NCBI GenBank assembly: GCA_963747095.1
Contig: CAVVEL010000022.1
Coordinates: 145,193-209,192, forward strand
DNA: 64,000 nt
Source: Terriglobia bacterium
GTDB lineage: Bacteria; Acidobacteriota; Terriglobia; JAJPHL01
Direction of reading: 5' to 3'
Positions 1 to 41,304 of this stretch are shown here, one piece after another. A program made the position numbers and the translations under genes. The stretch's first letter is position 1. Every line of letters starts with the position of its first letter. The notes beneath the pieces are model-generated. The model searched no databases and was not told the DNA's origin. It saw nothing but the letters and a program-made list of their open reading frames with translations.

Positions 1-2
1 AT

Positions 3-554
3 GAGGCAATCGCTGCGCTTAATAATCCCGTGTCTGGAGAAGGACAACCTCCGCCCGCAATACCGCAGGATCCAGCTCAGGGAGATTCAGAGTCCGAAGC
101 TGCCGTAAGCGACACGATGCTTCGCGAAGAACATGTTCCGTGGCTGCTATCCTTGTTGCAATCCTATCCCGGCTCGAAATGGGGTAATCCGGAGACGCGA
201 GGCCTTGACACCCCGTTCGCTGCCGAAACTTATGTGGAAACAACGCTGGAAGAAACACTTTGTCGCGATATTCGGGAGCGGCGAGTGCGCCTTGTGATCC
301 TCTGTGGAAACGCAGGTGATGGAAAGACTGCTCTCCTTCAGCACCTATCCGCTCGACTTGGACTGGGGCGGCCCGCGTCATCGGAGCGGATTCTCGAAGG
401 AAAGATGGATGACGGCCTTGTTGTTCGAATGAATCTTGACGGTTCCGCAGCCTGGCAAGGCCGTTCGGCGGATGACGCTCCTCGATTCGTTCCTAGAGAA
501 ATTCCAGCAAGGTCCGCCCGCCGAGGACCTTGTTCACCTCCTCGCAATAAATGA
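3..554 (+). CDS. P-loop NTPase, 5'-truncated at window edge; probably the N-terminal part of one larger protein continuing in 436..1902
   Basis: Frame is open from nt 3 with no upstream stop inside the window. Walker A-like 'LVILCGNAGDGKTALLQHL'. The tail after ~nt 455 is Arg/Pro-rich junk-like while the overlapping frame (436..1902) becomes protein-like, which suggests a frameshift rather than an 80-nt gene overlap. Confidence 0.5.
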   Translation, partial: EAIAALNNPVSGEGQPPPAIPQDPAQGDSESEAAVSDTMLREEHVPWLLSLLQSYPGSKWGNPETRGLDTPFAAETYVETTLEETLCRDIRERRVRLVILCGNAGDGKTALLQHLSARLGLGRPASSERILEGKMDDGLVVRMNLDGSAAWQGRSADDAPRFVPREIPARSARRGPCSPPRNK

Positions 555-1902
555 CGGGCGCCTTCTTGAATGGATAGCGGGTGTCGAATCTCGACTTGGT
601 AATGAGACCCCTCTTACAAAGGACCTCTATCACCGTCTTGACGACAAAGGATCTGAACACTTGTCCTACGTACGTTTCATCAACCTCAATGAGAGGTCCC
701 TGGTCGGCGGACTGAGCGCCGGAACCATTACAAGCGATTTTTTGGATCACCTGATAGACCAACTTTATGGCGGGGGAAGAGCAGAGGAGATTTGGAGACC
801 ATGTCATTCCTGCTCGGCGCAGGATCGTTGCCAAGTCTTCAGAGCAACAAGGATCTTTGCTCCAGGGGAAGCGCGTACAGTTTCGAAGGATGCGAGTTCC
901 CGTGCGCGGGAGCGACTTTTCGAGGCCCTCCGCGCGGTCCACTTGTCTGGCGAAACGCACGTCACAGTGCGAGAACTGCGCGCGACGCTCGTCTATGTTC
1001 TCTTCGGCCTTCACTTCTGTGACGACTACCATGGCGAATCTGACATACCCGTGTTCCCATATTGGGATCGTACATTTTCCCCGGCTTCACCCAGGAGGCA
1101 AGGTGAGGTCTTAAGAGAACTGGCTCGCTTTGATCCAGGTCTCGAAGCACATCCCCAGATTGACCGCTACTTACTTGGGAGGCCGAGTCCGGAAAGTAGC
1201 AAGACGGCTCCCCAGTATGGCCAACTTTCTCTCCAGTCTGCTCGGCGTCGGGCCTTCTTCGAATGGACTGAAGAACACTGTGAGCAGGTGGCGGCGGACC
1301 GCCACGGCCTTGGTCTGGCGCGAGGACGCCATTTGCGGCTCTTCCGAGATCTGTGTCTGCCGGACGCCGCATCAGAAGCAAAGGATCTTTGCGCTAGGCT
1401 TTGCGCAGGCGTTTCGCGCCTGGAAGACCTTCCGCAAGAGGCGTTCGAGCGGCCCAATGTAGTCCCGCTCCGTATTACTCCGCGCACTCCAATCGAGACC
1501 GCCTTCTGGGTAGAAAAGCCGCTATCCTCCTTCCGCCTTGAGGCTGCGATACCAGCAGAGACAGGGTCGGATCGACTTCACCGGCAAGCGCTGCTAATTT
1601 ATCAATACCGAGATGGAAATGAAGAGTGCCTTGAACTTGGCGCTGAGCTCTTCCACCTCCTGTTGGAGTTGAGCGAGGGCTATCAGCTCGGAGATGTCTC
1701 TACTGACGACACGTTCGCTCACCTCTCGATTTTCGTCCAACGCCTCGTCCGTGAAGACGAACGGGAAATGATGGCCTGGAATCCCATTCAAGATGATCTG
1801 GTCTACAAGATTTCCGTCCAGACCAACACCGAAGACGGCTCTACGCGACAAAAGATCGTGGTCACCCATGGTGCGAAGGGAGGAGCAGATGCCCTCCGAT
1901 AG
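436..1902 (+). CDS. Hypothetical protein (488 aa as called); likely C-terminal continuation of the P-loop NTPase via a frameshift between 433 and 554
   Basis: This frame opens at nt 433 just after a TGA. The called start is only a TTG. The sequence is protein-like throughout and has no domain I can name. Confidence 0.45.
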   Translation: MTVPQPGKAVRRMTLLDSFLEKFQQGPPAEDLVHLLAINDGRLLEWIAGVESRLGNETPLTKDLYHRLDDKGSEHLSYVRFINLNERSLVGGLSAGTITSDFLDHLIDQLYGGGRAEEIWRPCHSCSAQDRCQVFRATRIFAPGEARTVSKDASSRARERLFEALRAVHLSGETHVTVRELRATLVYVLFGLHFCDDYHGESDIPVFPYWDRTFSPASPRRQGEVLRELARFDPGLEAHPQIDRYLLGRPSPESSKTAPQYGQLSLQSARRRAFFEWTEEHCEQVAADRHGLGLARGRHLRLFRDLCLPDAASEAKDLCARLCAGVSRLEDLPQEAFERPNVVPLRITPRTPIETAFWVEKPLSSFRLEAAIPAETGSDRLHRQALLIYQYRDGNEECLELGAELFHLLLELSEGYQLGDVSTDDTFAHLSIFVQRLVREDEREMMAWNPIQDDLVYKISVQTNTEDGSTRQKIVVTHGAKGGADALR

Positions 1903-2932
1903 CGGTCGCGCGATTGTTGATCAGTTGCTTGGTCGAGAGATGACTAGGGAGATTTGGACTGGCAATTACTTGAAGGCCCTACCCATCTCAGTGCAGGACT
2001 TCGACCTTTCCGCAGTGCTGCCAGCAGTCTTCTACATGTTTCGCTTCGGTCATCGCAGGGGCCAGGGCAAGTTTCTCGAGGTTTTTGGCTCGGGCGCCAG
2101 TACTTCAAAGGAGCGGAAACGTGCCGCAACAATAGAGCGTGTGGCGTCAACGCTAGGCACAACTGATGGCTTTGAAGGCTTTCGAAGCGAGCCGGAACAG
2201 GCCATTCTTGGCGATCTGCTCCTCTGCTTCTGCCTTGAGAACGCGAAGCGCGCTCTCGGGCGAAAGGAACAAATCCAGCGAGTTGCACCGGCTCACTACA
2301 TGGCGGCTTGGGTGGATTTACCCGAGTCGGTCTCTCACCTTCGCTATGTGCCCGAAATGATTGTAGCAATGCTTGCCGATCAAAAGGGTAGCTACATAGA
2401 GCATAACCAAGAGGGAGACCGGACGCACTTTGCCGTCGGTCGAGGCTTCGAAAGAAACCTCCTGCTTCGGGCGTTTCACCAAGGAGTGACGCGTCGCGGA
2501 GAGCTCAGCAGTCGCACATCGGATAAGTTCGAAGAAGAAACGCTCGTTGGGTTAGATCAATTGTTGATGATTCGTTTGGCGCAGCACCTGGGCGAAGCAC
2601 CGGTGAAGCTACGCGGAAGCGAAGGGGAACGAATCTCAAACCAGCACCCGGTTGCAGAAAAGGCAGCGCAGAATTTCTCCGAGGATTTGCGTCGGTTCGT
2701 CCGCGCGTACGCCGGTGTCGTTCCGCGGCATGCCTTTGTGGAGCTATTGGAATCCTGTCTGGCGATTGGCGTCACTACCATTATCACGAGCGTGATCGAA
2801 CTCCTTTGCGACTGGGCAGAGACTGGGACGATTCGAAAAAAATGTGAACAGCGACCTCCTCGCCTTTTCGTGGACTGTTCAAACGGTGTTCAACAGCCGC
2901 TTGCGAGCCTTGGCCGAACAGTCTTTGGGTGA
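1793..2932 (+). CDS. Hypothetical protein (likely start ATG ~1889, 4-nt overlap with the upstream stop); possibly fused with 2844..3710
   Basis: Long ORF in operon context. The last ~30 aa ('KKCEQRPPRLFVDCSNG...') look out of frame. An A7 homopolymer at 2836-2842 lies exactly where the next ORF's frame opens. Confidence 0.45.
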   Translation: MIWSTRFPSRPTPKTALRDKRSWSPMVRREEQMPSDSGRAIVDQLLGREMTREIWTGNYLKALPISVQDFDLSAVLPAVFYMFRFGHRRGQGKFLEVFGSGASTSKERKRAATIERVASTLGTTDGFEGFRSEPEQAILGDLLLCFCLENAKRALGRKEQIQRVAPAHYMAAWVDLPESVSHLRYVPEMIVAMLADQKGSYIEHNQEGDRTHFAVGRGFERNLLLRAFHQGVTRRGELSSRTSDKFEEETLVGLDQLLMIRLAQHLGEAPVKLRGSEGERISNQHPVAEKAAQNFSEDLRRFVRAYAGVVPRHAFVELLESCLAIGVTTIITSVIELLCDWAETGTIRKKCEQRPPRLFVDCSNGVQQPLASLGRTVFG

Positions 2933-3710
2933 CTTCCTTCGGCAAATAGAACGTTTCCCGGTCATCTTGATGGCCGTCCGATTGTTAGACAGGGGTGCAC
3001 GTTATGATCGCCGTGTCAAAGCGCTAAACGTCTCAACGGGACCTTATGCGACAACGTGGCTCAACCTCTTAGGAGAGTTGCTTCATAGTAGGCGCCTAGA
3101 GTCAGACGCGATTCTCTATGATTTGGCGGGCAAGGCTGAGGAGTTGGCGGAGAGGTTGGAGGACGACTACCCAGAATGTGCGCAGATGTTGCGAAACGAA
3201 CAAAGCCAACCGAACCCAGTCTGGCGCCTAGCAGAATCACTCACCTCGCTGCAGGGTCGCGGAAATACCCAGGATAATCTAATCAAGCTACTCGACTCGG
3301 CTCTGTTGCTTGGGCGGCCCAATGGGCTAGCGCTCAAGAGAACGGTTACTCGCAACGTAGCTCAGGCCGGCACTCGAAAGCGAAGCGACCTTCGTTCTCT
3401 CGTGCTAACTGACTCGGTTCTCGACCACTTTGTCCATCTACATGTCTTACCCACGGGTGGCCGCATTGGTGTTCGGTCGCTTTCGTTTCGAGACTTCATC
3501 GCAAAACTCGAAGAGCGATACGGGCTGTGCGTGGATAGCTCTCCGCCCGGGATGACAATCTCCAATGATCAGCTACGGGCGAATCGTGCCATTTTAGAAC
3601 GTCGGCTCCGCGACCTGGGATTGTTGATAGGAGTGAACGATGCGGAAGCCATGAAGCGTCTGCGGCCTCGGTTCGACCCAGTAACGGAGGACACCAATGG
3701 TGTGGAATGA
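2844..3710 (+). CDS. Hypothetical protein (GTG start as called; may be the C-terminal half of the preceding gene)
   Basis: Protein-like ORF +1 relative to the upstream gene. No convincing RBS. The A7 run sits immediately upstream. Confidence 0.45.
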   Translation: MNSDLLAFSWTVQTVFNSRLRALAEQSLGDFLRQIERFPVILMAVRLLDRGARYDRRVKALNVSTGPYATTWLNLLGELLHSRRLESDAILYDLAGKAEELAERLEDDYPECAQMLRNEQSQPNPVWRLAESLTSLQGRGNTQDNLIKLLDSALLLGRPNGLALKRTVTRNVAQAGTRKRSDLRSLVLTDSVLDHFVHLHVLPTGGRIGVRSLSFRDFIAKLEERYGLCVDSSPPGMTISNDQLRANRAILERRLRDLGLLIGVNDAEAMKRLRPRFDPVTEDTNGVE

Positions 3711-4659
3711 AGTGCATGCGCGGGCGCTTCAAGTGGCCTTCGAGAGACTTCTCGGGAGAGCTGACCAGGGTGCCGTTGCCTTTGTCCGTTGTCTAGCGCC
3801 TGAGGTTGTTGAAACGCTCGCCGGCGATTCTTCCTTCGCTCCCCGGGATTGGCAGGTTCGGCGCGTCGCTGATCGCGACCATTCCCAATCGCGGACAATT
3901 ACCGCAGACCGCGCTGTAGAGCTTCGTGAGATGAAGGCGGATGCCGTCCTGCTGTTGGTTGATACAGTCCGGGCAGGAGCCGGTATGGATGGTATCTACA
4001 GCGCCGCCAGAGAGGTCGATGAAGAGACCTTGTTCGGAGAGGCGCTGCGGTTGGCAGGCGAAGAGGTGAGAGCACGGCTATCTGTCAAGCATCGCCGATA
4101 TGCTGAGGAAGCCACAAAGAAGGCCCGTGGTCACGGTCGTCGCCTTAGTGTCTCGGTTTGGACCGAATTTGATTTTTTCTGTCGGATTGCGGCAGAAAGA
4201 AGGCATCCCGGCGAGTTCCTACATTTGCTCGGCTTGTGGCCCGTTTCGGAGTCCTCAGATTTTGGTGAAGAAGAAGGATTGGATCTCTCTCGTCTTTTTG
4301 TTGATCGCTTACTGGGAACATCGGTGTCCGGCATGCCGCCGGCACTACGGGTTGACGCTCTGAGATTGCACAAGCCGTCGGAACAACAGAGGGCGGATCT
4401 CGAAGGGTTCCTGCGCACGGCGTTGACTAGGCCGCTTCTGCCGGCCCTTGCGGATCTCGCGAGCAAGAAACATCTATGGGTCAATGAGGCTCAGAGTGGA
4501 AGGCGCTGCACATTCCATCCAAAGTATCGAGTTGTTGCCTTGGCGTACGAACACGGGGAAAGTCGCTCGGGGGAGTGGGCTGGAAGACGGCGGCGAAGGT
4601 CCTCCGATGCTGATCCTGCGAGCAGACTCGAATCAGAGCGGAGAGTATTCGAAACTTGA
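3697..4659 (+). CDS. Hypothetical protein; Arg-rich junk-like tail after ~4480 suggests it continues into 4448..8704 through a frameshift
   Basis: Start overlaps the upstream stop (ATGxxTGA-type coupling). The tail 'GRRRRRSSDADPASRLESERR' is atypical while the overlapping downstream frame is protein-like. Confidence 0.4.
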   Translation: MVWNEVHARALQVAFERLLGRADQGAVAFVRCLAPEVVETLAGDSSFAPRDWQVRRVADRDHSQSRTITADRAVELREMKADAVLLLVDTVRAGAGMDGIYSAAREVDEETLFGEALRLAGEEVRARLSVKHRRYAEEATKKARGHGRRLSVSVWTEFDFFCRIAAERRHPGEFLHLLGLWPVSESSDFGEEEGLDLSRLFVDRLLGTSVSGMPPALRVDALRLHKPSEQQRADLEGFLRTALTRPLLPALADLASKKHLWVNEAQSGRRCTFHPKYRVVALAYEHGESRSGEWAGRRRRRSSDADPASRLESERRVFET

Positions 4660-7600
4660 AGTGAAGTGGAAAGCGCGACCGGAGAATTTGGAAAAGGGGG
4701 CCGTAGAGTATCGCGTTGTTATTCAAACCGATATGGATGAAGAACTCGCATCGCGTCCTGTGGTGCACTCCGGAAAGCGCGAGGAGCGTTGTAGATTTAG
4801 TGACGATGATTTTTCGACTCTAAGCGATGATGCCCTCATTTCAGCTAAGGTAGTCATTTCTGTCATTGGTAACGCAGCAGTTGAGCCAAGAGAGAGCGAA
4901 GAATTCATCATTCGCTTCGGCGAGCCACCCGATCGAGAGAAGGGAGGAGTCGGGAAGAAGGTCCGCACCTTTAGCGAGGGACTAATCGAGATAGAAAGCC
5001 GAGATCTCGTTTCCGAGATTGCCTCGTCCGTGGAGGTGTATCCCGAGGATTCCAAGGGTTTTGTTCTGATGCGGCCTCAGCGGGGTAAGAGCTTTCGGGT
5101 GTTCCGGCCTCGTTTGGTCGGTGAGGTCGAGAAGCGATGGGTAGATGAGGCGGGAGCGATTGGACGCTGGCGCGTCAAGGTGCGCTCCTCGGGCGCGCGA
5201 GCCGGTGAGGTTGAGTTCGTGCCCTGCTTACCCTCCTCTGCCGCGTTGCAATCTCTCTGGGATCGGACGGTCACCGCTAGTCGTCGCATGGCGGAGCGAT
5301 TCGCTGCGGCGGGCGGCGGCGTCGGTCAGGTCTACGATGAAAAATCAAAAGCTTTTGATTTGGTTGTCAGAGAATACCTTCTTGCGTGGACGGCATTACT
5401 GGATGAGGCGGATCCTTCACTCGCGCTTGCGAATACAGTCGAGGTTCAGTCACTTTCCGGGAGAACCATCGGCTTGATTGTACTCCCGAATCACGCACTT
5501 AGAGTTGCCTGGCTCGTCGGGTACGACAACCTTGTGTTGCATGCGGCTTTCGATCTTAGCAAGCGTCCCAGAGACATTGTAGAAGAGTTCGCGGTGCTTG
5601 ATGGTGCGATGTTTCCAGCGTTCCTACCCGGCCTGGAGCAAGGACATTCGTTCGTTTTTGCGGATACTCTCGGCTTCCATGTTGTCGGAATGGTGCCAGA
5701 TTCCGATAAGGAACCCAAGGCCGCGCTGGCGATCCTTGCCAGAGCGCTCGGAGAGAGCGAGACCGCGGATGCGGCACCAACAATCGGGGCGCAGAGTGCA
5801 ACCGTCCTGGGCAACGAGATTCTCAAATACCTCGACTGTCACAATCCCTCGAGGCTTCTCCATATCCATGCGCTAAGGCCCGGCGATGGTCTAACGGTTG
5901 CGCGGTCACTTGGCAGAGTTCAGGAGCACTATCGGCGGGTCTCAGATGAGGAAGGCATCGATCGGGAGGAGGGGCGGTCGGCCCCTGCGTTTGTGCTAGA
6001 GCTCTACCCGTCCGAAGGGCAGCGGGGAATTGCCGGACGATTTATTGCGGAAGCTCGGGAAAAGCGTCGCAGTGGAGCGGGCGTCTTGTCCATCGATGAC
6101 TATTGGATGCTTGAGTCCCAAGGTCTTCCGGGTGGAGTGAACCTTCCACGGTTACGCTGGGCACGTAAGCGCGAGCAAGATCCTAAGACGCCGGCGCATC
6201 TTGCACTGGCCTTCGACACTTTTGAATCGCGAGTTGTTGTCGAAGCTAGTGGGAGACGACGCGACGCGAGACCGCTCTATGTGTTTGGACTTCTGTCCTT
6301 TTTTGAGCGAGAGTACTCCAGTCTGCCATCACCCGTTTGGCGGAGCGTAATTCTTCCCTCGGGAGATGGCGAGAAGCATCCCTCAGACCGAACGCACACA
6401 GAGCGCCTTCTGCGCTTGCAGCAAGCTGTCCAGAGGGCGGTGGCACGGAATATTGGATCACGGGAAGACTTGCCATTCCTTAGAACCGATATCGCGCCGG
6501 ACAAAGCACAAAACCTAAGGGAGCTTCACCGCCTCTGCGACTGGGTGATCACACTGGATCGTAACGCTGGAGTTGAGTATTTTGATTCTCCCCGCGACAA
6601 TAGGGAGATCTACGATGCTTATGTAATCGACTGCGTCCCGGAGCGTGAGGATCTCGGGTGCCTGCAAATGATCACATCAACGAGTAATCTAGAAGAGGTC
6701 CGGGACCTCCTAGATGATGCGCTCGATCAGATGGGTCTCAGCCGGAGCCGCCGGAATGCGGAATTCTTAATGGACCATTTGAAGGCGCTGAGTGGACGCT
6801 TGGCAATACGCCTGACCGGAGAGAAAACTCCTACCTCAGAGCTGATTGCCTTGGCACTCTGTCACGCAAACTGTCGCAACCATTCGCATGTTAGCGACTG
6901 CTGGGTTTCTCTCGACGCAGGGTTCATTGTTCCCGTGGATGACATTCGCGATCTACTGCCCCCACTGGTTGCGACGGACAGCGACGACGAGAGGGAGTCG
7001 CGACCGGACCTGCTGTATGTTTCCCTGATTCCGAGAAAAGGATTGTTGTTTCGGTTCGTGGAAGTGAAGTATCGCAGACACCTTCGTGGTGCGCGAAGTG
7101 CCGAAGTGTTGCACGGCATCCGCGAGCAGGTGGAACCACTCAGGAAGCGGTGGGAGGATTGGTACGTTGGCGACGAGACTTGCGCGCCGTTCAGCGCAGT
7201 TCGCCGTGCCAAACTGGCGCGAGTCCTACGGTTCTACTCGGACAAGGCACATCGGCACTACTTACTTGATGAACAGTACGAAGCCATAACCGCTGAGATT
7301 GATCGAATGATTGAGAAAGGAGCAACGTACTCCTTTCCTGCAATGGAACGGTCCGACCGCGGATGGGTATTCTGCCCAGAATTCTCGGGCGAAACCCCCC
7401 TCGAGATTTCTCCCAACGATTGGGAAACGCGAATATTCTTGTTTGGCCCTGGCCTCATGCCCGATTCCGACTTTCGGTTTGAGTCGATAGCTCGTCAACC
7501 TGAGGTTGCGGCTTCCGATCCCTCAATGTCGCCTACTCCGCCGCCCGGACCAAGCGAAATGCCGTTGTCTGAGGCGGCTGCTGAAGAAGTTCCCGCGAGA

Positions 7601-8704
7601 GACGACAAACCAGACGACACAGCACAGGGCGGTGCCGAGAACCGTGCGGACGGCGAGCCTAGTTCTCTCTCCCTTGGTACGGACACGCTCACGGGTGCTG
7701 ATGTTCATTGGTCAATTTCAATCAAGGGCAATCCGCATCTCTTGCTTGCCGGCTTGCCTGGGATGGGGAAGACGACCTGCCTCCTGAATCTGTGTAACCA
7801 GATGCTTGCAGCGCAGATCCGTCCGATTGTCTTTTCGTACCATCAGGACATTGACCAGAAGCTCCAAGTGCTCGTGCCCTCCGTCCGGTTCATCGATTTC
7901 CACGGATTGGGCTTCAACCCGTTACAGGTGATCGATCGAGAGTCGAGAGTGGGGTATCTCGACGTAGCAGGGGCACTACGTGATATATTCGTCGCGATCT
8001 TCCCGGAGCTAGGCGATATTCAGGGCGAACGTATCCGGAAGGCCATCAAGGACAGCTTTTCAGAGCTGGGTTGGGACAATCCGAACTCTGTTCTCGCGGA
8101 GTTACAAGAACCGCCTTTCGGGCGATTCGTGGAGATCCTTCGAGGCGATCCAAAACAAGACAAGGGGTTGCGTACGCTGCTTGCGCGTTTAGAGGAGCTG
8201 GAAGATTACTCCTTCTTCGATCTCGGTGAATCTCGGGCGAGCCTGTGGGACAGTAAGGAGCCTATCATCATTCGCGTCCATGCGACTCAAAGCGACAACC
8301 TGCAAAGAGCCTTCGCCTCGTTAGTCTTCTACAGCCTGTATAAGGATATGTTCCGAAGAGGCCTCCAGGAACGTATCACGCATGCCGTAGTATTTGACGA
8401 GGCTCACCGCGCAGCGGGATTGAAGCTAATTCCCACGATGGCAAAAGAGTGTCGGAAGTACGGTATCTCGTTGGTAGTCGCGTCGCAGGAAGCCAAGGAT
8501 TTCAACGCGTCTCTTTTCTCGGCCATCGCAAATTATCTTGTCTTTCGCCTAACAGAGGTTGATGCCAAAGCGCTTGTGCGGAACGTTGCTAGTTCTCAGC
8601 AAGAGCGAGTACTGATCGATAAAATCAAGCAGATGGAGAGGTTCAAGGCACTGTACTTCTGCGAAGGCAAGAGCAGGCCTTCACCCGTAGTCTTAACGCC
8701 TTAG
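4448..8704 (+). CDS. Giant protein (1418 aa; ~1730 aa if fused with the upstream ORF) with a PD-(D/E)xK-like motif and C-terminal HerA/FtsK/VirB4-type P-loop ATPase
   Basis: Walker A 'LLLAGLPGMGKTTCLLNL' and Walker B 'HAVVFDEAHR' followed by 'ISLVVASQE' (AAA_10/DUF87-like arrangement). Roughly 250 aa upstream: 'RPDLLYVSLIPRKGLLFRFVEVKYRR', a PD...(D/E)xK-like pattern. A Pro/Ser/Asp-rich linker precedes the ATPase. Confidence 0.7.
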   Translation: MRISRARNIYGSMRLRVEGAAHSIQSIELLPWRTNTGKVARGSGLEDGGEGPPMLILRADSNQSGEYSKLEVKWKARPENLEKGAVEYRVVIQTDMDEELASRPVVHSGKREERCRFSDDDFSTLSDDALISAKVVISVIGNAAVEPRESEEFIIRFGEPPDREKGGVGKKVRTFSEGLIEIESRDLVSEIASSVEVYPEDSKGFVLMRPQRGKSFRVFRPRLVGEVEKRWVDEAGAIGRWRVKVRSSGARAGEVEFVPCLPSSAALQSLWDRTVTASRRMAERFAAAGGGVGQVYDEKSKAFDLVVREYLLAWTALLDEADPSLALANTVEVQSLSGRTIGLIVLPNHALRVAWLVGYDNLVLHAAFDLSKRPRDIVEEFAVLDGAMFPAFLPGLEQGHSFVFADTLGFHVVGMVPDSDKEPKAALAILARALGESETADAAPTIGAQSATVLGNEILKYLDCHNPSRLLHIHALRPGDGLTVARSLGRVQEHYRRVSDEEGIDREEGRSAPAFVLELYPSEGQRGIAGRFIAEAREKRRSGAGVLSIDDYWMLESQGLPGGVNLPRLRWARKREQDPKTPAHLALAFDTFESRVVVEASGRRRDARPLYVFGLLSFFEREYSSLPSPVWRSVILPSGDGEKHPSDRTHTERLLRLQQAVQRAVARNIGSREDLPFLRTDIAPDKAQNLRELHRLCDWVITLDRNAGVEYFDSPRDNREIYDAYVIDCVPEREDLGCLQMITSTSNLEEVRDLLDDALDQMGLSRSRRNAEFLMDHLKALSGRLAIRLTGEKTPTSELIALALCHANCRNHSHVSDCWVSLDAGFIVPVDDIRDLLPPLVATDSDDERESRPDLLYVSLIPRKGLLFRFVEVKYRRHLRGARSAEVLHGIREQVEPLRKRWEDWYVGDETCAPFSAVRRAKLARVLRFYSDKAHRHYLLDEQYEAITAEIDRMIEKGATYSFPAMERSDRGWVFCPEFSGETPLEISPNDWETRIFLFGPGLMPDSDFRFESIARQPEVAASDPSMSPTPPPGPSEMPLSEAAAEEVPARDDKPDDTAQGGAENRADGEPSSLSLGTDTLTGADVHWSISIKGNPHLLLAGLPGMGKTTCLLNLCNQMLAAQIRPIVFSYHQDIDQKLQVLVPSVRFIDFHGLGFNPLQVIDRESRVGYLDVAGALRDIFVAIFPELGDIQGERIRKAIKDSFSELGWDNPNSVLAELQEPPFGRFVEILRGDPKQDKGLRTLLARLEELEDYSFFDLGESRASLWDSKEPIIIRVHATQSDNLQRAFASLVFYSLYKDMFRRGLQERITHAVVFDEAHRAAGLKLIPTMAKECRKYGISLVVASQEAKDFNASLFSAIANYLVFRLTEVDAKALVRNVASSQQERVLIDKIKQMERFKALYFCEGKSRPSPVVLTP

Positions 8705-8716
8705 CCCAAACACACT

Positions 8717-9991
8717 CTACGCCCCTGCCTCATGTTCGGCTCTGTACATCAGCAACAGCCATTGGCTGAGCTCCAGAGTAAGAGAAGACTCTGTTCTCAA
8801 CACCAGGGCACGGAAATCAAAATCGATATCATCGAGGGAACGTGATGGAGCCTTCGCTTCCTGTACCAAAGCGAGCAGCTCTCCATGATGACCGTGAAGT
8901 AATCCTTTCTCCCGACTGTAGATGCGGCTGCGCCCCCGAAAATTGTACATGGCCTGAATGCCAAAAACGGCGGTCGCTACCGGGGGAAGCGTAATTCCGA
9001 ACAATCCAATAGCGATTGAGGCTATGCTCCCTTCGGCGGCGTCCCCTGCCTCCAAGCCATGATACAGGTGGCAACCGTGGAGAAATGCAACGACGATCGC
9101 GCACAGGAGCGTGAGCTTGAGAAACTGAGAGGCGAATCGTTCGTTCTCTTCGCAGTCGCGCAACTCATTGGCAAACCACAGTAGCTGCTTGCCAAGGCGC
9201 TGGTGGAGATAACACTCCATACGATCTAGGCAGTCAGTGCTCGCTGTCTGCCTGGCGTAAACGTATAGGTGCTCCATCCAAGTCTTCCCACCATAATCTT
9301 GTAATGGGACCAACTCCGAGAGAGCTCCGAAGTCAGTGCCTTCAATCTGTCCTCGTCGCGTTGCCGCCATGCGGGCCGCGGATGACTCATCGTAGCCAAG
9401 ATAGGGACCGACTCCTGCAACCAGCAGATACTGCTCACGGCGCAGAATCTCACATCGGAGTCGATTTCCAATCCATTCCGCAGTAGGCTCTGGCGCGGTC
9501 CATACGAGATACAGAAGAGTCCCTAGACAGAACGCCTCTGAAAGGATGAGGCCAAATGCCCAACCGCCTCCGTGAGGCCAGATAAGAACTTGGAGAGCGA
9601 GCAGGAGAAGCGCAGCCGGCGAAAGAACCGCGGCGCGTATTCCATTGGCGAAGTAATGCCCTTGAGCTTCAACGGCCCGGTTAAGATACTTCCATTGGGC
9701 TTCGTGAAGATGCTTTCCACCTCCGAACGCCTCCGGCTTGCGGACGCCTGTAGGTATGCTTAAGTCGTGGGCGGGAAACTGCTCCCGTCGCTTCGTTCTG
9801 CGCTCGTAGGACGCGCTCCTCTGCCAAAAATAGATCTCCTGCGAAAGCCAGAGCGCAAGGAGGAATACAAGAGGAGAGAACACCACCTGAGCCCAGGATG
9901 CAGATGCGCGAACCCCGGTGGCCAGTGCACCGACGAGGAGCACTGCACCCAAAGCAATTCGTTGCTTGTTTGTTGACTGAGCGAGCATCAT
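8717..9991 (-). CDS. 6-TM membrane protein built from three 'amphipathic helix + 2 TM' units; SLATT-like (speculative)
   Basis: Hydrophobic pairs at roughly aa 12-52, 108-158 and 288-345, separated by charged helical segments with W/Y/R/E-rich motifs ('RCEILRREQYLL', 'YNFRGRSRIYSREKGLL'). Last gene of the signalling operon, 45 nt after the REC-AlbA_2 gene. Confidence 0.5.
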   Translation of the reverse strand: MMLAQSTNKQRIALGAVLLVGALATGVRASASWAQVVFSPLVFLLALWLSQEIYFWQRSASYERRTKRREQFPAHDLSIPTGVRKPEAFGGGKHLHEAQWKYLNRAVEAQGHYFANGIRAAVLSPAALLLLALQVLIWPHGGGWAFGLILSEAFCLGTLLYLVWTAPEPTAEWIGNRLRCEILRREQYLLVAGVGPYLGYDESSAARMAATRRGQIEGTDFGALSELVPLQDYGGKTWMEHLYVYARQTASTDCLDRMECYLHQRLGKQLLWFANELRDCEENERFASQFLKLTLLCAIVVAFLHGCHLYHGLEAGDAAEGSIASIAIGLFGITLPPVATAVFGIQAMYNFRGRSRIYSREKGLLHGHHGELLALVQEAKAPSRSLDDIDFDFRALVLRTESSLTLELSQWLLLMYRAEHEAGA

Positions 9992-10036
9992 CGACCTTGC
10001 GTCCTAAAACACTCTAGCCAAGATTCTTCGACTTGG

Positions 10037-10909
10037 TTATCCCCATCTCGTCTTGCAGTACTCGATTGCCTCCCGCGTAGACAACTGTCGGGTTGAGTTC
10101 CCCGCTCGAATATACAGGTGCTCGCCGCCGCTCCCATCGGGAACGAAGACAGCTCTCCGCGCTGGTCTTGCGGACGCGCGGCACACATCACTACCCTCCA
10201 CGTTTTCGAAGTCGATTCCAATCAGTGGGCTGATGTCCTTTCCAAAAGCCCCGAGCAAGAGTGTCACGAGGAAATTTTCGAAACCGTCTCTGTCTTGTTT
10301 TTTGAGGGTCTTATAGTCATTCTCCAGGCCGACCACGTGACCGCTGTCATCAACCCCAATCAGCAGGAAGCCACCCTCAGAGTTCAGGAATGCTGCTACG
10401 GTCTTGACAATAACGACCTCCAACTCGTGATTTATCTTCTTAAGCCGTACATCCCAGCGAGCCGAAGTCTTAAACTCCAGTCCAGTGCTCTCACCTCTCT
10501 TGATCATCACAGAGACTGGTTCTTCGGGTAGCTTATTCAACGCCTTTCTTACTCGCGCTTGGAGCTCGTTGACGAGATCTTTCTTGCCCTTCGAAATGTA
10601 GTCGAAGGCGCCCACCTTCATACTCTCGACAGCATCTTCAAGCTCCGCGAAACCAGTGAGAATGATCCCTCGTAGGTCAGGCAATGTCTCTCGCAAACGG
10701 CCAAGCAGTGCAATACCAGACACTTCACTCGAAATTCGTTGATCGAGAATCGCGAGGGAAAAGTGCTCTGCCCGCGCCATTGCTTCTGCCTCTCTTGGAT
10801 CCGTTGTAACATGCAATTCATACTCACTCCCAAGCATGTCTTGGATTGTCTCGAGCCATGACTGCTGGTCGTCCACCACCAAGATCCGATGCCTATGCAT
10901 ACAAATCAC
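10037..10909 (-). CDS. Response regulator: N-terminal REC domain fused to AlbA_2 (Schlafen-like) domain
   Basis: REC: 'ILVVDDQQSWLETI...LAILDQRI...ILTGF'. AlbA_2 signature 'ESTGLEFKTS...VKTVAAFLNSEGGFLLIGVDDSGHVVGLE'. 4-nt overlap with the upstream gene. Confidence 0.75.
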   Translation of the reverse strand: MICMHRHRILVVDDQQSWLETIQDMLGSEYELHVTTDPREAEAMARAEHFSLAILDQRISSEVSGIALLGRLRETLPDLRGIILTGFAELEDAVESMKVGAFDYISKGKKDLVNELQARVRKALNKLPEEPVSVMIKRGESTGLEFKTSARWDVRLKKINHELEVVIVKTVAAFLNSEGGFLLIGVDDSGHVVGLENDYKTLKKQDRDGFENFLVTLLLGAFGKDISPLIGIDFENVEGSDVCRASARPARRAVFVPDGSGGEHLYIRAGNSTRQLSTREAIEYCKTRWG

Positions 10910-12165
10910 TCTCCACGACTTCGGTCAGAACTGAGTGTCTGGACCAGTCTTGTGAAGCCATCTCGCTTGAAAAGATCGGTGTATTGGAATCTACTGAAGG
11001 GCTGGCCGCCTTCGCAATCGTCAAGCCGAGCGATGAGGAAGTAAACAGAACCCTCCCGCATGCCATCCTGGCGATCAAGGGCCTGCCTGACCTCCCGACG
11101 AATGACACCTTCCTTGCCAACGGAGTTATTCGATAGGAAGAAAACGAAATAGTCGGACTGTGCTATAGCCCTCCGAATCGCAGGCTCCCATTCTCCCGCA
11201 AGGATACTCTTGACGTCCATCCAAGGTAGAAAGCCCTCTCCTGTTAGCTTCTCGAAAATATGAGATACCCTGATACGATCTGTCTTCTCATAAGAGAGAA
11301 ACACTCGTATCGGCATTGCATGATCGGCGAGAACCCTCGTCACAGCCTCGTGGAGAGTCTTGAGATCCCCCTTGGAGACGTAGTCCAGGGCTCCTCTCCT
11401 GCCGCCCTCGAGTGCGCTCTTGTAGTCTGGCTGTCCCGTAAGGATGATCGCTCGGAGATTGGGCGCGGCCTTGCGCATCTTACTGAGGACATCGAGACCA
11501 TTGACGCCACCGCCCAAAATCATGTCAAGAACGACGAGGGCGAAACGCTCTTTCTTCAGGCGACGGTAGGCCTCCTCGTGGCTCGTTGTCAACGTTAGCT
11601 CGAACTCAGGCTCCAATACCTGCGAGATTGTGTCGAGCCAGGCCTGTTCATTGTCAACAACAAGTAAGTGTTTCCTCCCACGTCGCGCGCTCTTGGGCGT
11701 GGCACCTTGGCGGGTATCGATCTTCAGTTCACGACTAGTGGCACTCGGCGTTTCGATAAGCGGCTTCGGTGGAATCGCCGCGATTGATTGGACGTCAGAA
11801 ATGGCTTCCGTGAAGGCGCTCGTAATCTCTGCCCAATCTATTGGGTTCTTTTTGAGATATCTAAAGGCACCCAATCCCTCCGCCTCAACTTCCGTCTTGG
11901 CCTCCGGAAGTCCTGTCAAAATGATCACTTTCCCCAAAGGGCGCCGTATCGACCTTGCCCGGCGAAGAATCTCAATGCCGGACATATCGGGAAGCATTAG
12001 ATCCAAAAAAATAACGTCAAACTGCTTGGCCGCTATCAGGTCCAACGCGGTTGCCCCATCCTCCGCCTCCGAAACGACGCATTCAAATTCCACAAGGATC
12101 TCCCGCAGAGTCAGCCGAGCGACCTTCCGATCCTCCACAATCAGTACCTGGGCCGCCCTCGTCAT
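10906..12165 (-). CDS. Response regulator with tandem REC domains and C-terminal TIR domain
   Basis: REC1 'VLIVEDRKVARLTL...VIFLDLMLPDMSG', REC2 'LLVVDNEQAWLDTI...LVVLDMILGGGVNG'. TIR: 'IRVFLSYEKTDRIRVSHIFEKL...WMDVKSILAGEWEPAIRRAIAQSDYFVFFLSNNSVGKEGVIRREV'. Confidence 0.8.
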   Translation of the reverse strand: MTRAAQVLIVEDRKVARLTLREILVEFECVVSEAEDGATALDLIAAKQFDVIFLDLMLPDMSGIEILRRARSIRRPLGKVIILTGLPEAKTEVEAEGLGAFRYLKKNPIDWAEITSAFTEAISDVQSIAAIPPKPLIETPSATSRELKIDTRQGATPKSARRGRKHLLVVDNEQAWLDTISQVLEPEFELTLTTSHEEAYRRLKKERFALVVLDMILGGGVNGLDVLSKMRKAAPNLRAIILTGQPDYKSALEGGRRGALDYVSKGDLKTLHEAVTRVLADHAMPIRVFLSYEKTDRIRVSHIFEKLTGEGFLPWMDVKSILAGEWEPAIRRAIAQSDYFVFFLSNNSVGKEGVIRREVRQALDRQDGMREGSVYFLIARLDDCEGGQPFSRFQYTDLFKRDGFTRLVQTLSSDRSRGE

Positions 12166-12911
12166 GTGGCTCCGCCCACAAGGGGAACCGTAATGATAAA
12201 CGAGGCTCCTCTTCCGAACTCACTCTCAACCCTGATCTTGCCGCCAATGAAATCAAGCTGAGTTCGAACTAGCCATAATCCTAAACCGCTGCCTTCAACT
12301 TTCGTCGTAAAGTCCGGTTCGAAAATTCTCCCCTGATCCTCTAGCTTAATGCCTGGTCCATTGTCCTTGATCTCCACGGCCGCACAGCCAACCCATCCAC
12401 CTACTCCCTTCGATGTAGTCACCGTAACTACACCTCTCCTCGTACTCTGTAGCGCCTGGTATGCGTTGATAATGATATTTCTAATTAGTTGAGTAAACTG
12501 AGTACGATACACCTCGCATACGAGGGGTGTCTCGCAGGGAAACACCTTTAACTTCACTGCCTGGGCGTTCTCCAAATGAGACAAGTCGAGTGCCTCCATC
12601 GCATCGCGTACTACTTCATTAATGTCTAGCGGCCCCTTGTCTCCCATGCGATTGGGTGCCAAACCAGCAACCTTATTAGCAAATTCCGTTGCCTGGTTTG
12701 CCGCATCCTGAATAAGTGACAGCTTTCGATCAATTCGTTCGTTCGCCACGCCAATTAACTTTCTTATCCCAATTACATTCGCCGGAATCAATCCGGAAGT
12801 ATTGTTGATTTCGTGAGCCACTGCCCTGACCAGCAAGGACAGATTGGCGTTTCTGTCGGCAATGGCCACAAGCCTGTCATTGGCCACCTTGTACATTTGA
12901 GCATTCTCCAC
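12162..12911 (-). CDS. HisKA+HATPase_c histidine kinase module; almost certainly the C-terminal part of 12877..14991 (one REC-GAF3-HK gene split by a 1-nt indel)
   Basis: H-box 'VRAVAHEINN', G-boxes 'IKDNGPGI', 'GSGLGLWLV'. Upstream of the called start the same frame reads 'ADYVGVAVENAQMYKVANDRL', the canonical GAF C-terminus. Confidence 0.75.
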   Translation of the reverse strand: MENAQMYKVANDRLVAIADRNANLSLLVRAVAHEINNTSGLIPANVIGIRKLIGVANERIDRKLSLIQDAANQATEFANKVAGLAPNRMGDKGPLDINEVVRDAMEALDLSHLENAQAVKLKVFPCETPLVCEVYRTQFTQLIRNIIINAYQALQSTRRGVVTVTTSKGVGGWVGCAAVEIKDNGPGIKLEDQGRIFEPDFTTKVEGSGLGLWLVRTQLDFIGGKIRVESEFGRGASFIITVPLVGGAT

Positions 12912-14991
12912 AGCGACGCCAACATAGTCCGCAAAGGTCCTGAAGAGACTCGAGATCGGCCTCGCAGTAGCGCAGATCGTCCCCGACCTTGTTAATGACC
13001 TTCATCGCACCCACGGTCTTGTCCTTTGCGACTATAGGGACCACCATAAGCGAATCAATATTTCGGATCTCTTTATGCTTCTTCTTCAAGAACGCGCAGA
13101 TTATGTTGTCATACTTGCCATCGTTCTCCTGCGGCGATACTTGAAGCCACGCTCTACCCGTATGGGCAACGGATCCAGTAACACCTTCACCCATGTTATA
13201 GAACGCACCAGTTATCATGGGCATGCCATATGATTGCCTCAATACTATCCTGCCTTCACTGTCGCGCAGGAACAACATACAAATCTCAGCCTGCATTACT
13301 TTCGCCATTTGCTCAATGGTCACCGCCAGGACGTCTTCAATATTCAGTGCCGAACTAATCACCCGCCCAACTTCACCGAGAGAGCGTAGTTGCTCCACTT
13401 GAAGTTCTTTCTCCTTGACCAATTCCGCGTTGCTGATTGCAACGGCGAGATGGCTAGCGGTGATCTCGAGCGCATTTCGGCAGTCACCGCTGAAACCGCG
13501 TTCGAGGAGGCAGTGAAAATCCTGATGGGGCGGGACCCGACCGTAATGCTTCGATTTCTTATTCATCGCACGCAAGACGCCCCGCACCTGATCACCTATC
13601 CGTATCGGCACGCCCAGATAATGAGCCACTTTCCTCGACGGAATATTGTCCAGATAACCCTCTTTTCCGGTGTGATCATACCGCTTGTCCTCCAACGGTG
13701 TCACACGGACGGAGGCCTTAGGATCCGGGAGCTGGATCGTCTCCTGATTCTTAAACACAGCACCAACCAAGCTCTCTCCCGGTCGATAAAACTCTGACGG
13801 TGTCTCGACACGTCTCCCGCCACGGAACTCCGCTACATTCTCGATCACTTGGGTGAGTTCGTTGTAAAGAAAGATAGAAATTACTTCCGGATGCACGATC
13901 GCTGAGATGCCTTGGATAACAGCTGTGTAAATCTGCGGAATGACGTCCGGCCCTTTTAGCCGGCCAATCTTGTTTAACATTTCGCTGATTTGGCTGTAGT
14001 CTCGGTGAATCTCGCCCCGGATCCTCTGCAGCCATGCCTTCGTGAGCGTCAGAGCCGCTAGAGTAACGAACTCACTTACAATACTGGCGCGTTGATCGTC
14101 GAAAAAGGCAACACGGTCTGCGCTGACATTGATCACGGCGTTAACAGCTTGGCCGAAGAGACCGGTGGTGATGGGAATGATATACGCGGAGCGAGCCCGT
14201 TGTAGGTAGAGGCGTTGGGCTGGGGGCGTGGCCTGGTCGGAGAGGGCGGCATCCGCGACCTTCCTGAAATTCACGTCCTTCTGCAAGTCACGGATGTTTG
14301 CAGGACTTCCCGTCTCGACAACTCCTCCGGAAAATGGGTCGCCTTTTGCCTTTGGGAGGGTAAACATCTGGCGCTGAGCTTCGTCTGTACCAGCAAACCC
14401 GCCCAGGCGATAATCCCCATACTCCAGGTCGTACACCCGTATGTGACAGGTGTACGCGCCAACGGTTGATCTAACAGCCGTGCAGATCTCATCGAGAATC
14501 GCCTCGATCTTCTCGTTGGCGCTGATCTTCTGCTGTACATCCAAGAGCAGACGAAGCTTGCGGTTGACCTGTTCCCTCTCGAGATCTTTGAAGGCTTGGT
14601 CTACAGAGAAGCGCAGGGCTTCAGTCCCCGTTTTTGGGAGATAGTTGAAGATCTTATATTCGCCTGCACGTTCGGCCGGCAGGCGACTCTCGTGACCTGT
14701 CAATACGATTACTCTGTATTCAGCCGAACGGTCCTTAATAGCTTCGAGAATGGCGGTACCGGCAACTGTTCCGAGAGACTCAAAGGAGAGGTCGAGTAGA
14801 ATTACTCGAATCTCCGGCTGGTCTCGTAAGATCGCGATACCTTCGTCGGGCGATTCAGCTTCAATGAACGTATAGTTGTCATTCCGGAAAAGATGCTTAA
14901 CCGTCTCACGCGATAACAGTTCATCGTTGACTAGCAGTACGGCTCTACTCATGTTAGTGCTTGCCCCCACATTTGATGATTTCCTGGTCAA
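12877..14991 (-). CDS. REC + three GAF domains (N-terminal part of a hybrid REC-GAF3-histidine kinase)
   Basis: REC 'VLLVNDELLSRETV...VILLDLSF'. Three GAF-like blocks. The last 18 aa ('CGLCWRRCGECSNVQGGQ') are out-of-frame junk. A frame switch at ~12945-12950 (extra T in 'cttt') restores 'LESLQDLADYVGVAVENAQMY'. Confidence 0.75.
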   Translation of the reverse strand: MTRKSSNVGASTNMSRAVLLVNDELLSRETVKHLFRNDNYTFIEAESPDEGIAILRDQPEIRVILLDLSFESLGTVAGTAILEAIKDRSAEYRVIVLTGHESRLPAERAGEYKIFNYLPKTGTEALRFSVDQAFKDLEREQVNRKLRLLLDVQQKISANEKIEAILDEICTAVRSTVGAYTCHIRVYDLEYGDYRLGGFAGTDEAQRQMFTLPKAKGDPFSGGVVETGSPANIRDLQKDVNFRKVADAALSDQATPPAQRLYLQRARSAYIIPITTGLFGQAVNAVINVSADRVAFFDDQRASIVSEFVTLAALTLTKAWLQRIRGEIHRDYSQISEMLNKIGRLKGPDVIPQIYTAVIQGISAIVHPEVISIFLYNELTQVIENVAEFRGGRRVETPSEFYRPGESLVGAVFKNQETIQLPDPKASVRVTPLEDKRYDHTGKEGYLDNIPSRKVAHYLGVPIRIGDQVRGVLRAMNKKSKHYGRVPPHQDFHCLLERGFSGDCRNALEITASHLAVAISNAELVKEKELQVEQLRSLGEVGRVISSALNIEDVLAVTIEQMAKVMQAEICMLFLRDSEGRIVLRQSYGMPMITGAFYNMGEGVTGSVAHTGRAWLQVSPQENDGKYDNIICAFLKKKHKEIRNIDSLMVVPIVAKDKTVGAMKVINKVGDDLRYCEADLESLQDLCGLCWRRCGECSNVQGGQ

Positions 14992-15481
14992 GCACGTCGT
15001 AGTCCAACGGTTTATTGACGAAGCCCTCGCCGAGCTGCAGAGATCTTTCGATGTTATACGGAGTGTTATCTGCGGATATGAAGATAACTGGCGTGTTAAA
15101 TCCTTGCGCTCGCATCATCTCACATACCTCGAACCCATTCCTTTCTGGCATCTTGATGTCTAGGAGAACAAGGTCAATGGCATCCGTACCGCCCATGATA
15201 TCGAGCGCCATGTCTCCGCCTTCGGCCTCAGCAACGTCGGCGCCATATTGTTGAGAAAGCCAAACGGCGAGAGCAGTGCGAAAAATGTCAGTGTCATCCA
15301 CAATCAGTATCCGGCGCAGCCACGGGATCCTATGACGGATGAGGGCATCATCTACGAAAGGCGGGTCAATAGGAGTATTGGAACCGTCTCCCTCCGCACC
15401 GTTCGCAAGAACAAAGTGAAACGCTGGAATATTCACCACGATTGTAAGACCCATGAATTTGGGGGGCGCAAAAGTCGTCAA
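14954..15481 (-). CDS. Single-domain response regulator (REC)
   Basis: 'RRILIVDDTDIFRTALAVWL...LVLLDIKMPERNGFEVC...PVIFISA'; stop overlaps the downstream start. Confidence 0.7.
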   Translation of the reverse strand: MTTFAPPKFMGLTIVVNIPAFHFVLANGAEGDGSNTPIDPPFVDDALIRHRIPWLRRILIVDDTDIFRTALAVWLSQQYGADVAEAEGGDMALDIMGGTDAIDLVLLDIKMPERNGFEVCEMMRAQGFNTPVIFISADNTPYNIERSLQLGEGFVNKPLDYDVLDQEIIKCGGKH

Positions 15482-34896: not shown

Positions 34897-35036
34897 CGAC
34901 ACTACTCTATCTATCTATCCGCAGGTGTCACAGATGATCGCAGGTAAACCATTACTTTCTTTCTTATCTGCGTTCATCTGCGACATCTGCGGATAGAAGT
35001 TCTTGACTTGACTCTCCTTTCTGTCATGAACTCAAC

Positions 35037-41232: not shown

Positions 41233-41304
41233 TCCGAATAGCCTGTCAGGTCGTGAGACCCGCAGGCCGCCCGTCTACATCGTCTGGCCTTCAACGGTTA
41301 GCGT

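Follow-up and report, generated by a model that had tools for sequence, protein, structure and literature searches.

A likely standalone F-G-H restriction cassette of the DndFGH/SspFGH/MADS lineage in DNA of a Terriglobia bacterium

The DndFGH systems and their nearest relatives

DndFGH has been recognized as a standalone counter-invader system (PMC10853773, the study of Rakesh, Aravind & Krishnan, NAR 2024; PMC12839542), and the same two reports have named a subset of DndF proteins in which an N-terminal NERD domain is followed by an inactive and an active S/T/Y kinase. The current report deals with positions 1 to 8704 of a 64,000-nucleotide stretch of DNA from a Terriglobia bacterium (positions 145,193 to 209,192 of contig CAVVEL010000022.1), which we refer to at its full length as the "window". 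We consider it likely that this segment represents the 3' two and a half genes of a self-contained, mobile F-G-H restriction cassette of the DndFGH/SspFGH/MADS lineage, and judging by its sequence the cassette matches the subtype of standalone DndFGH whose DndF bears NERD and inactive/active kinase domains, a subtype that has already been described computationally. A first-pass annotation of the window had proposed here a multi-gene NTPase/nuclease system ending in a giant protein with PD-(D/E)xK and HerA/FtsK modules, and had ranked it as a candidate for a previously undescribed system. The defence-type cassette with its giant terminal protein is supported by the results given below, but the claim of novelty is not, since the subtype appears in PMC10853773 and PMC12839542 and since the second gene, G, belongs to the named MAD7 family; the cassette is a further member of a computationally described and experimentally untouched subtype and not a new kind of system.

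According to PMC10853773, Asn replaces Asp in the Walker B motif of DndF, and some DndF proteins carry a zinc-chelating insert in the lid. The diagnostic ATPase features of DndH are Walker A and Walker B, an upstream Arg finger and a Gln sensor-1, and its N-terminal modules are given as iSWI2/SNF2-C, a helix-turn-helix (HTH), two beta-sandwiches, a target recognition domain (TRD) and an iDAM domain with a nested TRD. In the proposal of the same study, DndF is a sensor of nucleotides or invader molecules, DndG binds DNA, DndH restricts it and the NERD and kinase domains are co-effectors; passages of PMC11662687 ascribe DNA nickase and translocase activities to the DndFGH complex. Among the other systems that enter the comparison, MADS comprises mad1-mad8, including an N6-methyltransferase and a specificity subunit, and discriminates by methylation (10.1101/2023.03.30.534895), and a parallel between the NERD/kinase DndF proteins and PglW of the type 2 BREX (Pgl) systems has been noted (PMC12839542).

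The three genes of the cassette and their products

The six plus-strand open reading frames (ORFs) reported by the first-pass annotation are all present, at 3..554 (open at the window edge), 436..1902, 1793..2932, 2844..3710, 3697..4659 and 4448..8704. They are three translationally coupled genes, F, G and H, with one frameshift in each. The reference for this collapse, which had been put forward earlier as dependent on the frameshifts, was the set of three proteins from the intact locus of Kallotenue papyrolyticum (L001), each of which gave two collinear high-scoring segment pairs in adjacent frames when compared with the window by tblastn. Residues 745-884 of the Kallotenue F correspond to nucleotides (nt) 57-476 in frame 3 and residues 885-1359 to nt 478-1890 in frame 1; residues 9-346 of G correspond to nt 1901-2914 in frame 2 and residues 342-610 to nt 2901-3707 in frame 3; residues 1 to ~264 of H are read in frame 1 from nt 3697, and residues 265-1673 correspond to nt 4490-8695 in frame 2. 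The genes and their frameshifts, the latter placed by the Kallotenue alignment, are as follows.

3..1902, plus strand: 3' part of the F gene, a DndF/SspF-type P-loop 'nucleotide kinase' core and a C-terminal alpha+beta region; frameshift at ~477
1889..3710, plus strand: G gene, 606 amino acids (aa) when fused, MAD7 family, in the operon position of DndG/SspG; frameshift at 2897
3697..8704, plus strand: H gene for a giant protein of DndH-like type, 1668 aa in the fused frame; frameshift at 4489
~477, plus strand: frameshift 1, in F, an extra single base, GATGA[C]GCTC
2897, plus strand: frameshift 2, in G, an extra single C, CAG[C]CGC
4489, plus strand: frameshift 3, in H, an extra single G, GAG[G]CTC

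All three frameshifts (3/3) are thus +1 single-base insertions, those in G and H doubling an adjacent base, and the fused frames contain zero internal stops and zero deletions. The number of genes proposed at first stands and their sizes are corrected, to at least 632 aa visible for F (~1360 aa in relatives), 606 aa for G and 1668 aa for H. G begins at ATG 1889, with GGAGG ahead of it, rather than at the ORF start at 1793, and overlaps the F stop by 14 nt; H begins at ATG 3697 and likewise overlaps the G stop by 14 nt (ATGGTGTGGAATGA), a layout at both junctions that is typical of translational coupling. The four middle ORFs that had seemed unassignable are fragments of F, G and H. The frameshift in G, which had been suspected at 2830-2850, lies at ~2897 in the homologue alignment, and the A7 run at 2838-2846 was rejected as its site on the same ground.

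Four other genes in the window are also split across two frames, with one Pfam or PADLOC model extending over both parts.

20316-21884 and 21758-23416, plus strand: hsdR, split; PADLOC REase_I profile positions 1-492, then 490-1024
35007-35912 and 35576-36466, plus strand: sulfatase, split; one model across two frames
56233-58575 and 55266-56918, minus strand: TonB-dependent-type outer-membrane protein, split; one model across two frames
41730-43934 and 41308-41820, minus strand: S9/DPP-IV peptidase, split, and also truncated past profile position 107/213

The F-G-H segment therefore holds 3 of at least seven frameshifts in 13.6% of the window (8.7 kb, with at least four in the other 55 kb), a clustering that is only marginal (binomial P ~0.06). 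Because at least four unrelated genes of the window are also frameshifted, the insertions in F, G and H are probably assembly indel errors, which are likelier than real mutations. A connection of the frameshifts with a methylated GAGCTC motif was also considered and rejected, as nine GAGCTC sites are intact in the window.

The motifs of F that can be located in the window are the following.

306..329, plus strand: Walker A, GNAGDGKT
~426-446, plus strand: strand-2 motif RMNLDGS, just upstream of LLAINDGR
538..561, plus strand: LLAINDGR, a Walker-B-like strand ending in Asn-Asp, aligned with LIGINTGM of E. coli DptF
802..831, plus strand: Cys cluster CHSCSAQDRC, a candidate zinc-binding insert in the lid subdomain; family consensus PC.tCsAq.rC

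Each of these (the last as CxxCx5C) is at least 90% conserved among 45 homologues, and LLAINDGR fits the Asn-for-Asp Walker B of DndF (PMC10853773). The fused 632-aa F matches the PADLOC model of SspF at 1.4e-17 (profile positions 35-272 of 600) and that of DndF at 8e-7, and the profile of the F family runs collinear with E. coli DptF from one end to the other, with the motifs superposed (hhalign E 4.8e-5, probability 68%).

In intact relatives F is ~1360 aa long, and its N-terminal ~730 aa contain a NERD nuclease, a kinase-like domain and a Ser/Thr kinase that precede the DndF core. Sixty-four of the related loci contain the F region in full, and 61 of them show this arrangement with NERD and two kinase domains. 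The NERD domain is matched by Pfam at 8.6e-9 and has a conserved D...ExK, and the kinase match in the full-length relatives reaches 2.8e-23 (Pkinase). In the first kinase-like domain HRN replaces the expected HRD, and this domain is probably inactive for that reason; the second, a Hanks-type kinase, is probably active, because GxGxxG, the VAxK Lys, HGD..N and DYD are all kept. PADLOC assigns the kinase of the F relatives to mad6 (6e-24), PD-T4-6 and PglW (2e-14), and gives zero matches between the F core and mad6. The first residues visible in the window, EAIAAL, match the end of the kinase-domain consensus, from which we infer that a NERD-pseudokinase-kinase N-terminus probably sits just upstream of the window here too. 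Short variants of F also exist: those of loci L022, L043 and L075 match the DndF core alone (residues ~768-1353), with the NERD and kinase regions left unmatched.

For G, the two halves match the NCBIfam MAD7 model NF047733 (antiphage_MADS7) at 4e-19 (profile positions 36-286) and 1e-20 (profile positions 276-529), and PADLOC returns mad7 at 2e-13 and SspG at 3e-4, the latter over the last ~55 aa only. The Kallotenue G, which is 64-69% identical to the G of the window, bears a precomputed Pfam match to PF26611 (MAD7). No solved structure related to G was found. Its operon position and the weak SspG match suggest that G is probably a DNA-binding or target-recognition subunit. In loci L032, L065 and L078 the gene is split by insertions of ~1.9-3.9 kb that may be insertion sequence (IS) elements.

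The domains and conserved sites of H are listed here in fused numbering.

6620..7471, plus strand: PD-(D/E)xK restriction-endonuclease-like domain; catalytic candidates D1104, E1122 and K1124
7001-7078, plus strand: nuclease motifs RPDLLYVS...FVEVKYRR, 250 aa upstream of Walker A
7694..8704, plus strand: HerA/FtsK-type ATPase domain, the C-terminal ~340 aa; closest solved relative, the DptH C-terminal domain
7751-7777, plus strand: Walker A GLPGMGKTT with K1358, invariant
8387-8410, plus strand: Walker B VVFDEAHR with D1567/E1568, invariant
from 8444, plus strand: Arg finger R1586 in motif KECRKYG, invariant
from 8480, plus strand: sensor-1 Q1597 in motif ASQEAKD, invariant

All of the motifs quoted in the first-pass annotation (GNAGDGKT, PD...EVK, GLPGMGKTT and VVFDEAHR) are accordingly present, with the nuclease at the distance given there. 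More than 100 homologues of 1665-1710 aa align with the fused H along its entire length (100%) at 65-74% identity, and the central region of H alone is represented by 753 clusters at 50% identity. The HerA domain of H is matched in PADLOC by DndH (3e-20), mad8 (3e-18) and several antiphage HerA models; the best match in the Protein Data Bank (PDB) is the DptH C-terminal domain 7es4 (5.5e-8), and against the E. coli DptH family hhalign pairs residues 1293-1659 with 1286-1673 (97.8%, E 8e-13). All the ATPase features diagnostic of DndH are found in H, with the PD-(D/E)xK restriction endonuclease (REase) preceding the ATPase, and all catalytic and family-invariant residues are kept in the window genes at 62-74% identity to intact relatives.

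No assignment emerged for the N-terminal ~1290 aa of H as a whole. A block in the middle of the protein recurs weakly and in collinear order in three independent comparisons, namely H ~924-1061 with SspH 971-1105 (PADLOC, E 0.05), residues 858-983 of family member P0421 with DndH 889-1012 (a second DndH model giving 9e-6), and H 932-1073 with E. coli DptH 939-1069 (E 0.04). No [SDN]PP[FYW] methylase motif was seen by eye in the H family consensus, which would fit an inactive or absent methylase in H. Conservation along the family is uniform, with a mean column identity of 77% among 20 members from several phyla, and is unusually high for a defence protein. The sole variable stretch is a low-complexity linker at residues 1261-1320, and the lack of any other fast-evolving segment argues against a TRD-like diversification of sequence specificity.

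Distribution of the cassette and competing interpretations

One genome per GTDB species (185,579 species genomes) was scanned by alignment, and full-length relatives of H turned up in 204 of them, spread over more than 10 phyla; the carriers include Chloroflexota, Acidobacteriota, Planctomycetota, Latescibacterota, Binatia, Pseudomonadota, Spirochaetota, Gemmatimonadota, Bacteroidota and Omnitrophota. For the study of gene order, 80 retrieved loci and that of Kallotenue, 81 in all, were examined with 10-kb flanks. Conservation of the order, a point raised in the first-pass annotation, is evident: 71 loci extend past the upstream side of G, and F, G and H follow one another without a break in 70 of them; in L049 the cassette is disrupted between F and H. 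When all flanking ORFs of the 81 loci were clustered, no conserved neighbour gene emerged. The best cluster, found in 8/81 loci on either strand, is a type IIG-like gene (HSDR_N + N6_Mtase + Methylase_S) exemplified by L052:1637-3784 (minus strand, 715 aa), which adjoins F-G-H; it is too rare for an obligate partner and may be an occasional partner or a mere defence-island neighbour. The other flank clusters are housekeeping enzymes. Single-sequence tblastn with E. coli queries detected zero DndB, DndC, DndD or DndE in either the 64-kb window or the 81 loci with their flanks.

Several observations bear on mobility. Two Rhizobium plasmids carry intact, distant copies of the cassette whose H is 38-42% identical to that of the window over the full length.

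NZ_CP013540.1 21217-31933: L085, R. phaseoli R630 plasmid pRphaR630c
NZ_CP098802.1: R. anhuiense plasmid copy

On the conjugative plasmid pRphaR630c the cassette is flanked by a SIR2 gene, IS66/IS21 elements and a type ISP restriction-modification enzyme, and the RefSeq names of its three genes are 'NERD domain-containing protein kinase family protein', 'hypothetical protein' and 'ATP-binding protein'. In the window, the G+C content at third codon positions (GC3) is 0.55-0.585 in the F-G-H cassette and 0.72-0.79 in host housekeeping genes; values near that of the cassette (~0.58-0.63) occur in the signalling and TIR genes beside it. This contrast between positions 1-18216 and 27900-64000 suggests an island gained by horizontal transfer in the left ~18 kb. 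The high-GC3 genes between 27900 and 64000 are those for permease, HEAT, S9, Wzy, TonB and PQQ proteins. Viral contigs yielded only a single spurious 48-residue P-loop match, and therefore no sign of phage carriage of the cassette. Taken at the level of sequence, these features mark the cassette as what appears to be a self-contained, horizontally mobile unit in defence-island settings.

The likeness to the DndFGH subtype of PMC10853773 extends to the F-G-H order, to the Walker A, Walker-B Asn and Cys (zinc) lid insert of the F core, to the NERD, pseudokinase and kinase on the F of intact relatives, to an H of ~1700 aa that ends in REase and then HerA/FtsK, the latter with Gln as sensor-1 and an Arg finger upstream of it, and to the circumstance that modification genes are not obligatorily linked. 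DndG is a triple winged helix-turn-helix (wHTH) protein in that study. The cassette clade differs from the DndFGH of PMC10853773 in that it is uniformly conserved and free of fast-evolving segments. Kallotenue, Caldilinea and NERD have zero mentions in one supplementary file of that study.

The resemblance to DptFGH noted at first holds as well, through the SspF/DndF, DndH and mad7/mad8 matches, the PDB structure 7es4 and the hhalign result for the HerA domain. In comparison with the canonical DptFGH of E. coli (FORC_041 / B7A type), the order is the same, the sizes are 549/441/1689 aa versus ~630/606/1668 aa, the HerA domain is homologous and the F core is collinear with DptF; in contrast, F of the intact relatives is longer by ~730 residues at the N-terminus, where the nuclease and kinase domains lie, and the canonical E. 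coli dptFGH genes lie within ~2 kb of dndBCDE, whereas no relative of the cassette has dnd genes nearby. SspFGH, the restriction module that goes with the SspABCD single-stranded phosphorothioate (PT) system, provides the top PADLOC match for the F core and weak matches to SspG and SspH (0.05), but the profiles are covered only in part, no ssp modification genes are conserved nearby and F has the additional kinase and NERD domains. With MADS the cassette has in common three homologous modules, arranged as kinase - MAD7 - HerA just like mad6-mad7-mad8, but it has three genes and no conserved methyltransferase, and its HerA is joined in one chain to a 1300-aa nuclease protein; the N6-methyltransferase and specificity subunit are absent from positions 1-8704 and not conserved in the 81 related loci. 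PglW resembles the F relatives in its N-terminal NERD, pseudokinase and kinase, but its partners are PglX, PglY and PglZ rather than G and H, and its C-terminal half consists of a triple wHTH and an inactive STAND domain and not of a DndF core. On these sequence comparisons the cassette would be neither MADS nor DptFGH sensu stricto, and the family appears to tie the Dnd/Ssp and MADS lineages together at the sequence level. The MANTIS/Gao_RL preprint system was checked as well and is unrelated to the cassette.

A number of points weigh against the assignment of the segment to a restriction cassette of this lineage. The N-terminal part of F and anything further upstream fall outside the window, and this copy, with its three frameshifts, may have lost its function should they be real. 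Some scores are low: G reaches 69-74 bits with the MAD7 model, for which the equivalog cut-off is 410, and the NCBIfam DptF model (of the set TIGR03236-03238) gives 14.1 bits versus a cut-off of 50, with zero matches to the curated DptG and DptH models at E <= 0.1. By hhalign, the G family profile has zero similarity to E. coli DptG, and no significant match to E. coli DptH came out of the profile-profile comparison for the N-terminal ~1290 aa of H, although the power of this latter negative is limited, since the DptH profile was built from matches 83-100% identical to the query and is shallow (Neff 1.2-1.3). The AlphaFold2 model of H residues 512-1282, computed from 11 sequences, has a pLDDT of 38, which does not help to recognize the eight-domain architecture of DndH, and the H family is without a hypervariable segment, unlike the fast-evolving TRD, HTH and beta-sandwich domains of DndH. 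Experimental data on the cassette clade were not found in the literature.

We have weighed these points together with other explanations of the locus, one of which is that the cassette is a dead remnant here, its frameshifts being real mutations that inactivated it, a frequent fate of costly defence genes. The occurrence of one frameshift per gene and the marginal clustering described above speak for such decay, but at least four unrelated genes, the sulfatase, TonB-dependent-type protein and S9 peptidase genes among them, are frameshifted too, all the events in the cassette are single-base insertions (base doublings in G and H), the fused frames are free of stops and deletions, and every catalytic or invariant residue has been kept; we regard a dead remnant as unlikely. 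It is a good deal less probable that the cassette is the restriction half of a MADS-like, methylation-associated system with its methyltransferase and specificity genes just upstream of the window. The membership of G in the MAD7 family, the mad8 match of the H C-terminus, the mad6 match of the kinase in F relatives, the shared gene order and the type IIG-like gene that adjoins the cassette in 8/81 loci would all be in keeping with that possibility. They have to be set against the absence of a conserved methyltransferase beside F among the 81 loci, most of which have unrelated housekeeping genes upstream of F, against the MAD7 score far under the equivalog cut-off and the lack of a mad6 match in the F core, and against the fusion of HerA to a 1300-aa nuclease protein, since HerA is a separate 314-aa protein in MADS.

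A canonical, PT-dependent DptFGH or SspFGH with its dndABCDE or sspABCD partner elsewhere in the genome might be imagined, as the best named matches of F, G and H are Ssp and Dnd components, JGI labels several relatives DptH, and a passage of PMC10853773 describes DndFGH as often genomically decoupled from DndABCDE. We nevertheless hold this to be very improbable in view of the negative DndB/C/D/E searches of the window and of the 81 loci with 10-kb flanks, the curated DptF/G/H models that the proteins fail to reach, and the position of E. coli dndBCDE within ~2 kb of dptH, to which no relative in the clade offers a parallel. Least credible of all, and close to negligible in our estimation, is a role of the giant ATPase in a conjugative type IV secretion system (T4SS) or DNA-segregation machine (VirB4/TraC/TraD/FtsK), the housekeeping origin against which the first-pass annotation had set its own proposal. 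There are weak matches to TrwB_AAD_bind, FtsK_SpoIIIE, TraG-D_C, VirB4 and TraC, and tblastn finds 25-27% identity to plasmid TraC in the ATPase domain only; but the scores are far below the cut-offs (VirB4 13.8 bits versus 643, TraC 11.5 versus 567, TraD 14.6 versus 366), the best relatives are DptH, mad8 and antiphage HerA proteins, T4SS or partition genes are not conserved nearby in the related loci, and the ATPase, itself joined to a nuclease, is always encoded after F and G.

Possible mode of action and the surrounding genes

If the locus is, as we think likely, an F-G-H restriction cassette, a mechanism can be drawn up by analogy with the biochemically studied DndFGH complex. F, G and H would assemble as a complex on incoming or replicating foreign DNA, where the HerA motor might pump the DNA in a manner coupled to nicking or cleavage at the PD-(D/E)xK site of H, the predicted effector with its long N-terminal region, nuclease and HerA/FtsK DNA translocase; a defence phenotype would be the expected outcome. 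F would be the sensor or regulator, with a DndF-type core, a large lid and an alpha+beta surface, and would gate the activity in response to a nucleotide or invader cue. Its kinase might license the complex or phosphorylate cellular or phage targets, and its NERD domain would be a second nuclease. In line with what has been proposed for PglW, kinase and NERD would serve as a regulator or as effectors in reserve.

Systems of the DndFGH type rank with the largest restriction machines and with those least understood, and how they avoid self-damage without linked modification is a question for which this clade presents a clean case: it has three genes without a conserved partner, its nuclease and motor are intact, a kinase and another nuclease are built in, and its conservation across phyla is unusually strong. 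Since no modification gene travels with the cassette, the distinction between self and non-self would not be made via a cis-encoded mark, and discrimination would rest on infection cues, on the DNA context (entry, replication, packaging) or on an unlinked host mark. A bolder view, which we offer tentatively and hold to be doubtful, is that the cassette is a modification-independent immune module, the shared core of Dnd/Ssp FGH and of mad6-7-8, and works as a phosphorylation-gated restriction machine. Neither a short DNA motif nor an epigenetic mark would then be read, and the Ser/Thr kinase of F would license the HerA-driven nuclease. This possibility is suggested by the lack of a hypervariable recognition segment and of linked methylase or PT genes; if it is true, the identity of 50-74% over 1670 aa among more than 10 phyla would point to a constrained, invariant target.

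The copy in the window is an ordinary instance of the family, in an assembly with many indel errors, but the clade as a whole is a good experimental target, suited to asking how an FGH system without modification tells self from non-self, and it is represented in cultured hosts by Kallotenue papyrolyticum and by the conjugative plasmids of Rhizobium phaseoli and R. anhuiense. Threshold-based censuses in the style of PADLOC may miss the clade, because the DptF/G/H and MAD7 models remain below threshold and the RefSeq labels are generic.

The first-pass annotation had also placed the locus in a defence island with TIR, SLATT-like, hsdR, Mrr and Uma2 genes; all of these were found except the SLATT-like gene, the ORF at 8717-9991 being without a Pfam match. 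The features in question are listed below.

8717-9991, minus strand: ORF of 424 aa, zero Pfam matches
36316-37161, plus strand: Uma2-family putative endonuclease (8e-38)
40807-41274, minus strand: Mrr_cat restriction endonuclease (2.8e-25)

Directly after H, a run of signalling and effector genes occupies 8717-18216 on the minus strand. Following the 424-aa ORF, it includes genes for a REC + Schlafen/AlbA_2 protein, a REC-REC-TIR protein, a single REC protein and a GAF-PAS histidine kinase, as well as a 249-aa HATPase_c protein that overlaps a REC-GAF protein and is possibly part of one frameshifted histidine kinase. By its domain content the run looks like a two-component-controlled TIR/Schlafen effector module. 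Two further TIR proteins are encoded at 19062-19955 and 24168-27524 (plus strand); one combines TIR with AAA_16 and gives a ThsB-like match in PADLOC (6e-17), and the other is a 1118-aa protein of the order Ser/Thr kinase - TPR - TIR. Between them, at 20316-24134 (plus strand), the split type I hsdR is followed by a YgjP-like metallopeptidase gene, and no hsdM or hsdS was seen among the scanned ORFs neighbouring hsdR. The Mrr gene immediately follows the truncated gene for the S9 peptidase, whose 3' end it may have displaced.

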